Both the position numbers and the translations under genes were made by a program. Under the pieces are notes generated by a model. It searched no databases and had not been told where the DNA came from. It worked only from the letters and a program-made list of their open reading frames with translations. A stretch of DNA of 64,000 nucleotides from an uncultured delta proteobacterium (GTDB lineage Bacteria; Desulfobacterota; RBG-13-43-22), in assembly GCA_963790475.1 (NCBI GenBank), contig CAWBOS010000010.1, positions 512,001 to 576,000 on the forward strand, in the 5' to 3' direction. Shown piece by piece: positions 929 to 6,081 of this stretch. Each line of letters begins with the position of its first letter. Position 1 is the first letter of the stretch.

Positions 929-2296
929 TCAACCAAAATTTCCTGACGCTTCCAGGAGCTTTTTCATCATGCATATATTATCGGTGTGCCCGGTGCGCGT
1001 AGCAGTCACCTTTCCCCGAATCGGTCTATTGAGCAGATAAAAATCCCCTATTAAATCCAGAATCTTGTGCCGGGCAAATTCATCGGGAAAGCGGAGTTCG
1101 GTGTTAACCACCTTTTGGTCGTCCACCAAAATGACATTATTAAACCACCCTCCTTCACCCAAACCCAGACGATCAAGCATTTCCATATCCTTCACAAAAC
1201 CGAAGGTTCGGGCCGGTGCGATATTTTTCTTGAATTCTTCCGTGTTATCCAGAACGAAATAGAAGTCCTGTTGGCCGATCGGAGGAGGATAGTCCAGGAA
1301 ATAATGAACGGAAAAGATATCTGCCGGCTCGATGACCAGAGATTTGTCTCCATTCCCAATTTCAAATCGCTGGGCGATCTTCAGCTCTTTTACACGTTCT
1401 TCCTGTTCCTCAATCCCGGCTTCTTCGATCAATTTGCAGAATTCCAGGGCTGAACCATCCATAATGGGGATTTCCTCAATCATTTTCACCATCAGATTCG
1501 TAATCCGGTAAGCGTGAAATACGGCCATCAGGTGTTCGATGGTTTTAGCCACAGCCATCCCCTTCTTCAGCGAAGTGGCCATTTCCGTTGTTTGAACGTA
1601 ATCGACGTGTAAAGGAACCACTTCATCGGAAGAAACGTTTCCAAAGAGGATTCCCCGGTTTGGAGGAAGGGGTTGCAACAATAACCCGGTCTTCATGCCG
1701 GAATGGAGTCCGGTTCCGTATAAGACCATGCTCTTACTCAGGGTTCGCTGAAGGGGAAAAGCGGCCCCTTTTCTCTTGGAGGTCTTAGGTAAAAAGAAGT
1801 CAGCTTCCTGAACCGAAGAAAGGGGAAGCCCGGTGATATCCTCCGTGGACCCTTCGAAGGATCTCCATTTTTCGGTCAGGAGAGTTTCTTCCCTTCCGGC
1901 CTGGGCTGATTTGGGGATCGCCAAGTCCTCCTTCTGACTGCGAATGGCCCGATGGACTGTTTTTAGAAGAACATCGAGGGATAGGGGTTTTTCAATGAAG
2001 TCGAAGGCCCCGAGCTTCACTGCCGCCATGGCCGTGGAGATCGTCGCATGACCGGAAAGCATAATTACCGGACAATTCGGTTCAATCCCCTTCATCCTTT
2101 TTAGTACTTCGATGCCATCCATTCCCGGCATCCAGATGTCCAGGAGCGTCAGGAGAGGAACTTCCTGTTGGAAGATTTCAAGGGCCTCTTCTCCGCTCTT
2201 GGCCGTGGTGAGGTCAAACCCTTCATCATCCAGAACCCCGGTAATAGATTTAATAATTCTCTCCTCATCGTCAACTATGAGGATCTTTTTGCCCAT
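929..2296 (-). CDS. lpxC: Response-regulator receiver domain fused to UDP-3-O-acyl-GlcNAc deacetylase
   Basis: N-terminal REC domain (ILIVDDE, LLDIWMPGMDG, MLSGH, FIEKP). C-terminal LpxC (QRTL..GTGLHSG, TIEHLMA, EIPIMDGSA, ARTFGF, RHKILDLIGD, GH). One continuous 455-aa ORF. Confidence 0.93.
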   Translation of the reverse strand: MGKKILIVDDEERIIKSITGVLDDEGFDLTTAKSGEEALEIFQQEVPLLTLLDIWMPGMDGIEVLKRMKGIEPNCPVIMLSGHATISTAMAAVKLGAFDFIEKPLSLDVLLKTVHRAIRSQKEDLAIPKSAQAGREETLLTEKWRSFEGSTEDITGLPLSSVQEADFFLPKTSKRKGAAFPLQRTLSKSMVLYGTGLHSGMKTGLLLQPLPPNRGILFGNVSSDEVVPLHVDYVQTTEMATSLKKGMAVAKTIEHLMAVFHAYRITNLMVKMIEEIPIMDGSALEFCKLIEEAGIEEQEERVKELKIAQRFEIGNGDKSLVIEPADIFSVHYFLDYPPPIGQQDFYFVLDNTEEFKKNIAPARTFGFVKDMEMLDRLGLGEGGWFNNVILVDDQKVVNTELRFPDEFARHKILDLIGDFYLLNRPIRGKVTATRTGHTDNICMMKKLLEASGNFG

Positions 2297-2474
2297 ATGA
2301 TCACCTTTCCGGGAGGATTAGACGATTGCGCTACCGGATTTTCCTCTTAATCTTCAATCAATGCAGGATATCAAACCTTACTTTATGGATACTATCAGAA
2401 TTAACGTCCAGAGTCAATGAAGACCTCAAACTTGCCTTCTTGACCTTATTTTTGTAAGGAAGCCTTTTTTCCAC

Positions 2475-2503
2475 TTGACCGGCTTATCTCCTTATTTTAT
2501 ATT
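2475..2503 (+). promoter_or_regulatory. Putative sigma70 promoter for the acyl-CoA dehydrogenase
   Basis: TTGACC-17 nt-TATATT. Confidence 0.5.
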
Positions 2504-2800: not shown

Positions 2801-4006
2801 ATGGATGCCCTTTTGAATATTCTGGATTCATATCAGGCTGGTTTAAAAGAAAAGAAATACGTCAAAGACTTTTACGCTATTCTCAAAGAGATGGTTATTC
2901 CTCATTATCCTACCCTTGAATCAAAAATTGAAAACCACAAAGCCGTCTTCCCCAAAGAATGGGACCGGTTGATGTCGGCTCTTAAAGGGGCCCATATTTT
3001 TGAACAGTTTGTCCCCCTTGAATATGGAGGGCAAAAAACATCCGAGTTGGATATCTATTGCCTGATGGAATTGTTGGGCTATGCCTCTCCGGGTATAGGC
3101 ATTATTTTTGTCTCCCACGGGCGGGCAATCGATATCGTCTGCCGTGGAAATCAATCCCAAAAGGAAGAATACCTCCCCAGGATGGCCGAAGGGCATTTAG
3201 GGGCCATTGCCATGACCGAGGAAAAGGCCGGTTCGGATGCCATGTCCATCGGTCTGATAGCCAGGGCGACGGACCATCACTATCTGCTTAGCGGCCAGAA
3301 AATATTCATCTCCAACAGTGGGTTGGCTGAAATATATACCGTTCTGGTCAACACCAAAGGGACCAAAGGACCCCGTTCTTTAAGCCTGTTTCTGGTAGAT
3401 GAAAATTCCCCGGGTTTCATAGTCGAGGGATTACCTGAAAAAGACGGTCTGAAGGTTTTACCTATCGGGCGGCTTATCTTTAAGGATACGCCCGTTCCTT
3501 TGAAGAACCTGGTCGGAGAGGAGGGCGGCGGACTTTTCCTGACCCTGGGGGTTATTGACCAGGGAAGAATTCATATCGCCGGTATCTGCTGCGGGCTGGC
3601 TTACCGGATTTTTCGGGAAATTTATCAGTACGCCCTTCAGAGAAGGCAATTCGACCATCCCCTGACCAGCAGTCAGGACATCAGTTTCCATATCGCGGCC
3701 ATGTATTCCAATGTGAATGCCGCCAGAGGTCTCTGTCTGCAGGCCTTGCAGCATATCGGGACTCCCTATTATCGGCTGTACTCCTCCCAGGCCAAACTCT
3801 TCGCCTCCCAGATGGTCATGGAAGTAGCTTCTCAGGCGCAGATTCTAATGGGAGGAAGAGGATATCTTCGAAATGATTTGATCAATCAGCTGGCCGCCGA
3901 CGCCCGGGGGATGGAATACCTGGAGGGGACATCCAATGTCCAGAAAATGATTATCACCAGCGAATTATTTAAAATGTACCAAAAAGAGAAAGAAGGAGAG
4001 ATTTGA
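2801..4006 (+). CDS. Acyl-CoA dehydrogenase family protein
   Basis: AIAMTEEKAGSD, GQKIFISN, RRQF, GGRGY and YLEGTSNVQK (catalytic Glu region). Confidence 0.92.
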   Translation: MDALLNILDSYQAGLKEKKYVKDFYAILKEMVIPHYPTLESKIENHKAVFPKEWDRLMSALKGAHIFEQFVPLEYGGQKTSELDIYCLMELLGYASPGIGIIFVSHGRAIDIVCRGNQSQKEEYLPRMAEGHLGAIAMTEEKAGSDAMSIGLIARATDHHYLLSGQKIFISNSGLAEIYTVLVNTKGTKGPRSLSLFLVDENSPGFIVEGLPEKDGLKVLPIGRLIFKDTPVPLKNLVGEEGGGLFLTLGVIDQGRIHIAGICCGLAYRIFREIYQYALQRRQFDHPLTSSQDISFHIAAMYSNVNAARGLCLQALQHIGTPYYRLYSSQAKLFASQMVMEVASQAQILMGGRGYLRNDLINQLAADARGMEYLEGTSNVQKMIITSELFKMYQKEKEGEI

Positions 4007-4029
4007 GCTGAGGTAAGCCTTACCCCGGG

Positions 4030-5052
4030 TCAGTTGATAAAAACTTTGGTGTAGAAGTCGGTTTGCATCAAGGCCTTACCCGCCCCCATAACCACGGAGG
4101 TCAATGGGTCTTCAGCGATATGGACCTTAAGACCGGTTTCCCTTTTCAGGAGTTTATCCAGTCCGTTGAGCAATGCCCCCCCTCCGGCCAGGGTCATCCC
4201 TTCCTGGCTGATATCGCCTGATAATTCGGGAGGAGTTTTTTCCAAGGCCCTTTTCACGGCGTCAACAATGGCCCATATGGGTTCGGCCATCCCTTCCCGA
4301 AGGTCTTTGTCCGTCAGTTGGATGGTTCGAGGGATCCCGGAAAAAACCTCTTTTCCCGACACCTGGAAAGGTATCGGTTTTTGCTGAGGATAGGCCGAAC
4401 CGTAGTCGATCTTAATCTGTTCGGCAGTATTCTCTCCTATCTGTAGATGGAATTTCTTTTGCAGGAAATAAATAACGGATTCATTGAGTTCGTCTCCAGC
4501 CACCCGGATGGACTCACTATAAGCCGTGGAAAACGACATAATGATGGCCACTTCCGTGGTCCCTCCTCCGATGTCCACAATCATATTGGCCCGGGTTGAC
4601 TGGACCGACATGCCGGCTCCAATAGCAGCAGCCATGGGTTCCTCGATAAGGTACACATCCCGTGCTCCTGCTTCCAGGGCCGATTCGACCACGGCCCTTT
4701 TTTCGACCATGGTGATGCCGGACGGGACACCGATGACCAAATTTGGCTTAAAAAAACGGGATTTCCCGCTAACCTTCAAGAGGAAAAATTTAATCATTTC
4801 TCGGGTAATCTCGAAGTCGGCGATTACGCCGTCTTTCAGGGGACGAATCGCGGAAATACGGGCCGGGGTCCGGCCTAAATAGTCCTTGGCCTCTTTCCCG
4901 ACGGCCAGAACCTGGCCGGTTTCATTATTGATGGCCACGACGGAGGGTTCGTTAAGAACCACCCCTTGATTTTTTTTAAAGATTAAAGTATTAGCCGTTC
5001 CCAGATCCATGGCCATATCTTCGGAAAAGAGGCCGAAAAATTTTCTGATCAT
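4030..5052 (-). CDS. mreB: Rod shape-determining protein MreB (no mreCD following)
   Basis: DLGTANT, NEPSVVA, IRPLKDGVIADF, IEEPMAAAIGAG, DIGGGTTE, LAGGGALL. Confidence 0.95.
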   Translation of the reverse strand: MIRKFFGLFSEDMAMDLGTANTLIFKKNQGVVLNEPSVVAINNETGQVLAVGKEAKDYLGRTPARISAIRPLKDGVIADFEITREMIKFFLLKVSGKSRFFKPNLVIGVPSGITMVEKRAVVESALEAGARDVYLIEEPMAAAIGAGMSVQSTRANMIVDIGGGTTEVAIIMSFSTAYSESIRVAGDELNESVIYFLQKKFHLQIGENTAEQIKIDYGSAYPQQKPIPFQVSGKEVFSGIPRTIQLTDKDLREGMAEPIWAIVDAVKRALEKTPPELSGDISQEGMTLAGGGALLNGLDKLLKRETGLKVHIAEDPLTSVVMGAGKALMQTDFYTKVFIN

Positions 5053-5064
5053 AGTTTTTTAAAC

Positions 5065-6081
5065 TCACAGATTCATTAAATAAAGTATTGAGGTGATGAT
5101 GGTCTGGCCGGCCGAGGTCAAGGCTTGAATTTCTTCTTCCCTCCAATCATTTTCCCGGTGGCCGATCAAATTCATTACCCCATATAAATTACCGAAAAAA
5201 CATAGGGGAAGACCGATGTAAGATTGGAAGTGCGTACAGGGGTCATCGGGGTAAAAGACATACGATTTGTGGTTCCTCGGTTTCATCGAACGCCGCACCA
5301 GAGGTTTTTCTTCCCGGATGACCCAGCCGGTTAACCCCATATCAATAGAATGGAAGGTTTTTTTCAAGGGGCCCTGCAAGGTTCCATCCGAGGCGACCAC
5401 CTTGTACCGATCCCTCTTCCTGGGAACCAGGGCTAAAAAGGCGGCGTCCGTCCTGGAAAATAAACGGCAACAGTTAAGGGCTTTCAAATAATATTGATTG
5501 ACATCCTGTTTTTCCATGGAAAGGCTGTTGATGTCATTAAAAAATCCCAGAATATGATGCTGATCCCTTTCTTTTTTTCCAACATCTTGGGCGTGAAGGA
5601 TATGAAGGACCAGCAAAGAGAAGTCGTGTAATATTTTCTGGTCTTTATCGGTAAAAACATAGTTTCGTTTGCTGTCAATACACAGGACACCGACCTCTCC
5701 CACGGGAACTGCTAAAAAGGATTTTATCTTTTCGTCCCGCAGATACAGTTTTAAATTTCGGGTATCACGATCGAATTGAGAGATATTGACCGGGCGTTGG
5801 TTTTTGGCCACCCAGCCGATCAGGCTGTCTCCCACCTGGAGTTGGGTATCCGGGTCAATATGAAGACTCAGGCTGTGATAACTTCTGAGATTCAGTTTGT
5901 TCCTGGCGGAATCAAGCAGGAAAAGGGCTGTCGTAAAAGAGTCGGTTACATTACTGATGAGCTGTATTATTTCCTTTAATCCATAATCGGTGACAGTTTC
6001 CATCTGAACGGGAAAAGGCTTCTTAATAAATGGATTATCATCCATCGCATAATATGCTATGTTAAAAAAAATTTGATTCAC
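5065..6081 (-). CDS. Tandem-GAF domain protein with no output domain; true start may be about 6044 or 6006
   Basis: Two GAF-like repeats (SLIGWVAKNQRP..KSFLAVPV..GVLCIDS; GLTGWVIREEKP..SYIGLPL..GVMNL). Confidence 0.75.
   Translation of the reverse strand: MNQIFFNIAYYAMDDNPFIKKPFPVQMETVTDYGLKEIIQLISNVTDSFTTALFLLDSARNKLNLRSYHSLSLHIDPDTQLQVGDSLIGWVAKNQRPVNISQFDRDTRNLKLYLRDEKIKSFLAVPVGEVGVLCIDSKRNYVFTDKDQKILHDFSLLVLHILHAQDVGKKERDQHHILGFFNDINSLSMEKQDVNQYYLKALNCCRLFSRTDAAFLALVPRKRDRYKVVASDGTLQGPLKKTFHSIDMGLTGWVIREEKPLVRRSMKPRNHKSYVFYPDDPCTHFQSYIGLPLCFFGNLYGVMNLIGHRENDWREEEIQALTSAGQTIITSILYLMNL

Follow-up and report, generated by a model that had tools for sequence, protein, structure and literature searches.

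A gene on the minus strand of the window, by which we mean the whole 64,000-nucleotide (nt) stretch of DNA analysed (contig CAWBOS010000010.1 of an uncultured delta proteobacterium, positions 512,001 to 576,000), joins the receiver (REC) domain of a two-component response regulator to LpxC (UDP-3-O-acyl-N-acetylglucosamine deacetylase), the committed enzyme of lipid A synthesis. Comparison with its relatives shows the product to be a conserved two-domain enzyme, built of a predicted phosphorylatable receiver, a flexible linker and an apparently catalytically complete LpxC, and it is almost certain that the gene represents a genuine fused, functional LpxC. Sequence comparison also shows the line of descent of the receiver, which can be traced to the sigma54-type, NtrX-like regulator of an operon composed of lpxC, a DUF4390 gene, the gene of an NtrY-like kinase and that of the regulator. 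By the same comparison, this regulator first gained a C-terminal LpxC and lost its sigma54-contact motif, giving long forms that still lie directly after the kinase gene, and several lineages, that of the window included, later deleted the AAA+ module to yield short forms.

LpxC is the control point of lipopolysaccharide (LPS) synthesis and a long-standing antibiotic target. The controls known to act upon it are proteolysis (FtsH/LapB), other protein partners and transcription. Response regulators with an enzymatic output are likewise familiar, among them CheB (REC-methylesterase), PleD and WspR (REC-GGDEF) and RpfG (REC-HD-GYP); fusions of a receiver to an enzyme, CheB for one, operate through the relief of inhibition. 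A description of a REC-LpxC fusion was not found in the open full-text literature (subscription journals and supplements lay outside this scope), and in the available portion of a 2025 review of lipid A regulation (PMC12444477) 'response regulator' occurs 0 times and NtrYX appears only as a transcriptional influence. In this protein an enzyme and a signalling domain that are each known meet in a regulatory arrangement both widespread and undescribed, the sequences of which already stand in databases as plain LpxC.

The gene (929..2296, minus strand, as are all of its parts given below) comprises 455 codons from an ATG start and a stop codon at 929-931; a few bases 5' of the ATG, a Shine-Dalgarno-like GAAAGGTGA can be read from the sequence (2301..2309). 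In the 455-amino-acid (aa) product, the Pfam model Response_reg matches residues 5-114 (E 2.5e-30; 105.4 bits against a cut-off of 30.2) and the LpxC model PF03331 matches residues 183-448 over model positions 1-267 of 268 (E 8e-83; 278 bits against a cut-off of 27). The NCBIfam lpxC equivalog TIGR00325 is matched at 247.8 bits, above its cut-off of 187.25, and the top non-LpxC NCBIfam match is NtrX, which aligns with the REC part alone and at 125 bits stays far under its cut-off of 600. In an AlphaFold2 model for which 75 family members were the input, the mean predicted local distance difference test score (pLDDT) is 81.5 and the REC and LpxC domains are both confident; the single-chain predicted template-modelling score is 0.75, a value that could hint at a definite arrangement of the domains but from which no inference is drawn.

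The receiver occupies residues 1-119 (1940..2296), as delimited by Pfam, the model and alignment, and displays D9-D10-E11, D53 within LLDIW, S81 within LSGH and K103 within EKP. Asp53, whose codon lies at 2138..2140, is the predicted phospho-acceptor by its counterpart role in the receiver family. The model folds this part into five strands alternating with five helices (pLDDT 85-96 in most blocks), and the nearest solved receivers by sequence are the NtrX entries 4d6x and 5m7n. The LpxC domain, delimited by Pfam, solved structures and the model, covers residues 183-455 (932..1750) and carries E254-H255, T364, H410-K411-x-x-D414-x-x-x-D418 and H437 within TGH. Its alignments with solved LpxC chains have E values from 1e-41 to 1e-52, and H255, H410, D414, E254 and H437 fall upon counterpart residues in those chains, which we take to be the zinc ligands H79, H238 and D242 and the catalytic pair E78 and H265 of E. 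coli numbering. Over most of the domain the pLDDT is 81-98, and Foldseek superposes the model on solved LpxC with template-modelling scores of 0.83-0.94 (normalised to the target) and root-mean-square deviations of 1.6-2.8 Å. The protein ends about 7 residues past the LpxC domain, without a long C-terminal tail.

Between the two lies a linker, residues 120-182 (1751..1939), of variable length and sequence, which is predicted to be disordered because residues 124-178 fall under pLDDT 50; it stands where the long forms have an AAA+/HTH-like module. Mean column conservation, calculated from 47 close relatives, is 0.87 for REC, 0.87 for LpxC and 0.55 for the linker. At the level of single sites, in an alignment of 75 short forms, D10, S81 and K103 are found in 75 of 75, D53 in 74 and D9 in 72, while in the enzyme H410, K411, D414, D418 and H437 are present in all 75 and E254 and H255 in 74. 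The position of T364 holds Thr in 72 and Ser in three, and all three are of the type of the second paralog described below. Such conservation shows both predicted active sites to be under selection. The initial annotation, made from the letters of this DNA, had read here a single 455-aa open reading frame (ORF) at 929-2296, two complete domains, a linker of roughly 60 aa, the motifs DDE, LLDIW, LSGH, EKP, EH, HKILD and GH, and no cognate kinase adjacent in the window; the ORF list agrees on the first and last of these, the Pfam matches (full-length for LpxC) on the domains, and low pLDDT and low conservation on the linker, and every motif is present in the protein.

The fusion is neither confined to this assembly nor dependent on its reads. 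A 928-nt contig from another public run is unbroken over window positions 1616-2500 and contigs of a second public run tile positions 1499-1993; therefore LpxC, linker and REC are all crossed by independent data. Among the sequencing runs listed as holding the sequence none was of RNA, a result with no bearing on expression. The best 120 of 7940 scored database matches all bear PF00072 together with PF03331 (439-484 aa, 69-100% identity), and the named records among them are proteins of Thermodesulfobacteriota or of Desulfobacterales metagenome-assembled genomes (MAGs), annotated as plain LpxC. Among the best 150 representatives at 50% identity there are 14 long and 23 short complete fusions. 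Record titles extend the fusion beyond the phylum to uncultured Syntrophorhabdus (70% identity), Syntrophobacter, Candidatus Binatia and Acidobacteria, and further to Candidatus Acidiferrales, Nitrospinaceae and Candidatus Nitromaritima, the last two with long forms.

Within the phylum, a sample of 301 genomes, each at least 90% complete, was searched. Classifying fused and unfused proteins by the PF03331 E-value alone fails, in that the stand-alone LpxC of one genome (G034) scores like a fused one, and for this reason we searched with the LpxC domain of the window protein (E <= 1e-62 defining the window clade) and fetched the loci. An LpxC match is present in 287 of the 301 genomes and a window-clade LpxC in 81, from 52 of 198 genera, including whole families (f2, 8/8; f12, 11/11; f14, 6/6). 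The 80 loci other than that of the window were scanned with purpose-built hidden Markov models, and in 78 of them REC lies in frame upstream of LpxC, which with the window makes 79 of 81 genomes in about 20 families. The two exceptions are a frameshifted long form, with REC in another frame, and a locus cut 14 nt upstream by a contig end. The 78 in-frame loci divide into 57 short forms, with 23-63 aa between the domains, and 21 long forms, where an AAA+ domain lies within the intervening 292-348 aa. A second PF03331 match occurs in just 5 of the 81 genomes, so that in 76 the fused-clade LpxC is the only LpxC. In the genus of the window, 12 of 13 genomes hold the fusion, with one cut by a contig end and one frameshift-split; G013 (93% complete) gave no LpxC match at all. 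Three loci from high-GC genomes (L133, L134 and L135, of G152, G122 and G092) presented stop-to-stop REC-LpxC frames of 1007-1423 aa, which had been candidates for kinase-REC-LpxC hybrids; Pfam finds only REC and LpxC in them, and they are over-extended frames. Automatic gene calls in high-GC carriers could consequently have badly over-extended N-termini.

The genome to which the window belongs depends upon the fusion. Its assembly (6.34 Mb, 20 contigs) contains exactly two PF03331 matches, both fused to REC, and a search of all 20 contigs with the Pfam LpxC model found no stand-alone lpxC. The second REC-LpxC paralog (L002:1033-2358, plus strand) lies on contig 10 about 1.25 Mb from the window, and its 441-aa product matches the window protein at 39% identity along the full length. 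Together with the copy in G017, which is 91% identical to it in the LpxC domain, and with the representative P0156, it falls into a separate subclade, and it has Ser at the T364 position. LpxB and LpxK each have one match in this genome and are present in all five genomes tested; since both LpxC copies are fused, the lipid A pathway here depends on fused LpxC. A search for the LapB zinc ribbon (PF18073) was uninformative, with matches in all five genomes and also in 10 of 14 reference genomes, Gram-positives included.

Evidence on the origin of the receiver comes from five relatives with a stand-alone lpxC, which share an operon of lpxC (product 285-295 aa), DUF4390, an NtrY-like kinase (NtrY_N, HAMP, PAS, HisKA, HATPase_c) and a sigma54 regulator (REC, Sigma54_activat, HTH_8); two genomes of the same family as the window's (G017, G014) have NAD kinase directly 3' of the regulator. 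Passages from Rajeev et al. (PMC3333781) give lpxC as the single target of the corresponding Desulfovibrio vulgaris regulator, DVU2934, and place lpxC directly upstream of the orthologous operon in Syntrophobacter fumaroxidans. The window receiver is 52-57% identical to the operon regulators and at most 49% identical to the other receivers listed from its own genome. A REC-only tree, in which 19 of 20 other receivers stand apart at a Shimodaira-Hasegawa-like approximate likelihood ratio (SH-aLRT) of 89, agrees with a regulator origin; such a tree being too short, we relied on the longer REC-AAA query from a long form, for which the operon regulator is the top match in five of five genomes, with 256-281 bits where the runner-up has 209-246.

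The long forms align to the regulator through REC, AAA+ and a segment of its DNA-binding end before running into LpxC. Their AAA+ module shows decay: all 5 operon regulators have GAFTGA or GSFTGA and none of 15 long fusions does, the Glu of the DE pair is gone from those long forms with a recognisable Walker B, and the Sigma54_activat match falls to 89-97 bits in the long relatives, as compared with 245 in an operon regulator. Pfam detects no Sigma54_activat domain in the window protein, and reports no HTH_8 in it or in the long forms scanned. In a tree of LpxC domains (101 rows, taken as best matches to the window protein and so a biased sample of LpxC), 44 fused rows and four rows labelled 'alone' are separated from 53 unfused rows by a branch of SH-aLRT 99; the four may be fragments, and the unfused side includes operon-linked lpxC from the same phylum. 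Long and short forms interleave in this tree (for example P0130 and P0131, at 100), a pattern indicating that the AAA+ module was lost repeatedly. As the AAA+ and DNA-binding parts are gone and the enzyme is attached, any control exerted by the receiver of the window protein must be post-translational.

Regions upstream of lpxC were scanned for sigma54 -24/-12 elements with a consensus of 11 specified positions. Four of five regulator-bearing operons (sites in L010, L011, L013 and L009) have a match of 9-11/11 at 31-39 nt before the lpxC start, TGGCAC-N5-TTGCA (11/11) being an example; by our own estimate, a match of this quality would occur by chance in about 0.02 of 450-nt regions. The best score is at most 6/11 for two stand-alone lpxC genes without a regulator, six fused genes checked score at most 7/11 or offer no candidate, and an element of at least 9/11 was not found upstream of the window gene. 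This distribution suggests that the fused genes have lost the sigma54 route of transcription to lpxC.

The candidate cognate kinase is NtrY-like and is encoded on another contig of the same genome, where a DUF4390 gene and the kinase gene form a pair (contig 12, G000:C12, kinase at about 823.9-826.1 kb) followed by NAD kinase. In 21 of 69 related loci such a kinase is directly upstream of the fusion, on the same strand and ending 41-153 nt before REC (9 long and 12 short forms, nine families); the 69 are the loci with enough upstream sequence (at least 2.4 kb where the kinase is absent), a further nine being too short. In one genome (G026) the order is DUF4390, kinase and then, at once, a 726-aa REC-AAA-LpxC. 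Among named MAG loci the kinase is directly upstream in 9 of 17, a count that is not independent of that from the phylum sample because the collections overlap. In all five unlinked cases checked (G000, G012, G031, G033, G021) the kinase is an orphan. The DUF4390 and kinase proteins from the genome of the window are 72% and 71% identical to those of a same-family relative that retains the regulator, while for the regulator itself the genome offers a best match of just 45%, amid at least ten paralogs at 40-47%; by this measure the operon regulator is gone from the genome, with DUF4390 and the kinase left as orphans. Two genomes of the same genus (G006, G009) exhibit the intermediate state, lpxC-DUF4390-kinase-NAD kinase without the regulator. 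Upstream of DUF4390 on contig 12, where those two carry their stand-alone lpxC, lies some 1.2 kb of DNA that has no long ORF (L021:6062-7275), and in it tblastn detected no LpxC remnant. A DUF4390 model of our own, made from eight sequences, matches in 2 of 80 loci, a number left uninterpreted in view of that small basis and of the limited upstream reach. In Bordetella, according to the available text of PMC13001219, the DUF4390 protein PlrP is the periplasmic third component of an NtrYX-family system.

Three sigma54-type regulator matches elsewhere in this genome (C13:356311-357528, C15:372245-373645 and C12:463278-464678) each contain one in-frame stop (TAG, TAG and TAA, respectively), which may reflect a pseudogene, a sequencing error or a gene boundary.

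From these observations we think it probable that the NtrY-like kinase phosphorylates Asp53 and thereby tunes LpxC directly. In the mechanism we propose, the orphan kinase, with its periplasmic DUF4390 partner, would sense an envelope signal and phosphorylate Asp53 of REC-LpxC; the phosphorylated receiver would then alter the output of LpxC directly, in place of the older transcriptional control, and phosphorylation would raise the activity of the enzyme. The last step is the weakest. By analogy we favour, by a slight preference, an effect that raises rather than lowers LpxC activity, since the ancestor activated lpxC and CheB-type enzymes work by relief of inhibition.

A number of points weigh against this interpretation. 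The direction of regulation that it assigns is drawn purely by analogy, and the 8.8-fold rise in lpxC transcripts upon loss of NtrYX in Rhodobacter sphaeroides, given in passages of PMC7240162, contrasts with the favoured activation. Rare members have a broken site in one or other half, D53N in P0141 and E254R/H255S in P0163, and the variable linker, disordered in the model, would offer no obvious rigid allosteric path from receiver to enzyme. Neither the window nor 48 of the 69 loci has an adjacent kinase, and in such unlinked loci the pairing rests on orphan status and ancestry. Stand-alone lpxC persists beside the fusion in G006 and G009, and the G009 kinase (L014:2570-4802, minus strand) is split into two overlapping frames of 299 and 494 aa in a genome in which both fusion and stand-alone lpxC are present; this may be a frameshift or an assembly error, or a sign that the kinase is dispensable. 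As to ancestry, the REC-only tree, drawn from 117 columns, has weak resolution, with SH-aLRT 89 at its key split. The sigma54 elements are no more than consensus matches, and in three operons they imply a transcription start about 5 nt before the ATG, an oddity that would make for a nearly leaderless mRNA.

Other interpretations of the same protein can be offered. The best of them holds that the receiver sets the lifetime of LpxC, with phospho-Asp53 exposing the protein or its linker to FtsH, Lon or ClpXP, or hiding it from them. The LpxC of E. coli is under proteolytic control, which passages of PMC12444477 discuss for other taxa as well, the linker is long and disordered, and whatever speaks for a linked kinase and for a REC that can be phosphorylated fits equally. 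We nonetheless judge it unlikely, given that no degron is indicated by the sequence, that the protein stops so soon after the LpxC domain, and that neither the sequence nor the length of the linker is conserved, as would be odd for a recognition element. It is more doubtful by far that the receiver is a relic which no longer signals, carried by a constitutive housekeeping LpxC. An adjacent kinase is missing from the window and from the 48 loci just mentioned, and the AAA+ module has decayed and been repeatedly lost, which indicates that parts of the ancestral regulator were dispensable; yet REC is conserved to the same degree as LpxC among the close relatives, the phospho-site residues are kept in 74-75 of 75 short forms, the domain is retained in 79 of 81 genomes of about 20 families, and the orphan DUF4390-kinase pair is maintained at 71-83% identity. 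Slighter again is the probability of a reversed flow of signal, in which occupancy of LpxC would alter the phosphate on the receiver and so report lipid A precursors to the kinase, as a sink or feedback. Retention of the kinase pair is consistent with it, and the long forms keep a segment aligning with the DNA-binding end of the regulator, so that a second output is conceivable; on the other hand, the short forms have no other output domain, HTH_8 is not detected by Pfam in the long forms scanned, and catalysis must be the chief role of the fused protein, which is the sole LpxC in 76 of 81 genomes. Finally, an assembly or deletion chimera peculiar to this genome, which the initial annotation had feared on the strength of further chimeras that it alone suspected in the window, is refuted, with next to no probability left to it, by the fusion in 79 of 81 genomes and in all 120 listed database matches, by named MAGs from several phyla bearing the same architecture, by the second paralog in the same genome and by the 928-nt contig of another run; what had been suspected as an accidental ntrX::lpxC fusion is thus no artefact, and by ancestry it is an old, fixed ntrX-like::lpxC fusion.

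The surroundings of the gene, where neighbouring ORFs were named by reading their translations only, may be briefly described. Upstream, a sigma70-like promoter match (TTGACT, a 17-nt spacer and TAGTAT, with TG before the second hexamer; 2389..2417, minus strand) was found by consensus scan, but the region holds three such sites against 2.5 expected from shuffles, so the match is no evidence by itself; the promoter and terminator scan as a whole was set aside, the sites being no more numerous than shuffles explain. In the stretch 2801-6081, a divergent acyl-CoA dehydrogenase-like gene stands beside the fusion; four of five loci from the same genus keep it and none of 14 more remote loci does, and it provides no functional clue. 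The same stretch holds, both on the minus strand, an MreB-like gene (4030-5052) and a 338-aa ORF (5065-6081) that possibly encodes a GAF-type protein. On the other side, a purC-like ORF (3-665) runs towards the 3' end of the fusion gene in convergent orientation, and one contig from run X1 leaves out 66 nt of the intergenic DNA 3' of the gene (726-793; depth 2.7, with 27 letters on the shorter side), probably a case of strain variation.

Set beside characterised systems, the window protein resembles the LpxC of E. coli, P. aeruginosa and A. aeolicus in its full-length domain, its metal-binding and catalytic residues and, by the model, its fold. Like the E. coli enzyme, it would catalyse the step that commits the cell to this pathway, of which LpxB and LpxK are present, but it differs in its N-terminal receiver, in belonging to a separate LpxC clade and in lacking a long C-terminal tail; whereas the E. 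coli enzyme is subject to FtsH/LapB proteolysis, control here is proposed to proceed via phosphotransfer. A natural fusion of LpxC to another domain has a counterpart in LpxC-FabZ (NF009667), although there the partner is C-terminal and catalytic (a dehydratase) and here it is an N-terminal receiver. The window protein reaches 198.4 bits with NF009667, through its LpxC part only and against a cut-off of 465, and LpxC with a C-terminal extension falls on the unfused side of the LpxC tree.

Similar to CheB, PleD/WspR and RpfG, one receiver is linked to one enzyme, the output of which phosphorylation would be likely to alter; unlike those signalling enzymes, the output here is a housekeeping one that serves the biosynthesis of envelope lipid. 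To the NtrYX-family systems (DVU2931/DVU2934, NtrYX of R. sphaeroides and C. crescentus, and PlrP-PlrS-PlrR of Bordetella) the resemblance lies in the type of kinase and its DUF4390 partner, in a receiver nearest to the operon regulator and to solved NtrX, and in lpxC as the same functional target. NtrYX affects lpxC transcript levels in alphaproteobacteria, as stated in passages of PMC12444477 and PMC7240162, and the available text of the Bordetella paper (PMC13001219) makes no mention of LpxC. In contrast to the regulators of this family, the window protein has no AAA+ or DNA-binding parts and carries the target enzyme itself.

Our judgement is evenly divided on the broadest form of the proposal, namely that an envelope sensor composed of DUF4390 and an NtrY-like kinase phosphorylates LpxC and so sets LPS flux by phosphotransfer, rather than by proteolysis or transcription, in about one in four of the genomes sampled from the phylum and, by record titles, in members of Nitrospinota, Acidobacteriota and Binatia. 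If this is true, a housekeeping lipid enzyme, in many bacteria their only LpxC, would be under direct two-component control, and control of lipid A would be the ancestral core task of NtrYX-type systems. The fusion serves as a Rosetta-stone link that ties the poorly understood NtrYX/DUF4390 (PlrP-PlrS) sensors to lipid A synthesis; such a link fits the scattered reports from D. vulgaris and the alphaproteobacteria and gives this sensor family an output that can be tested. Living intermediates are preserved along the path from a regulator acting on an lpxC promoter, through regulator::LpxC, to REC-LpxC, and the turning of a transcription factor into the regulatory module of its own former target makes an unusually clear case of rewiring.

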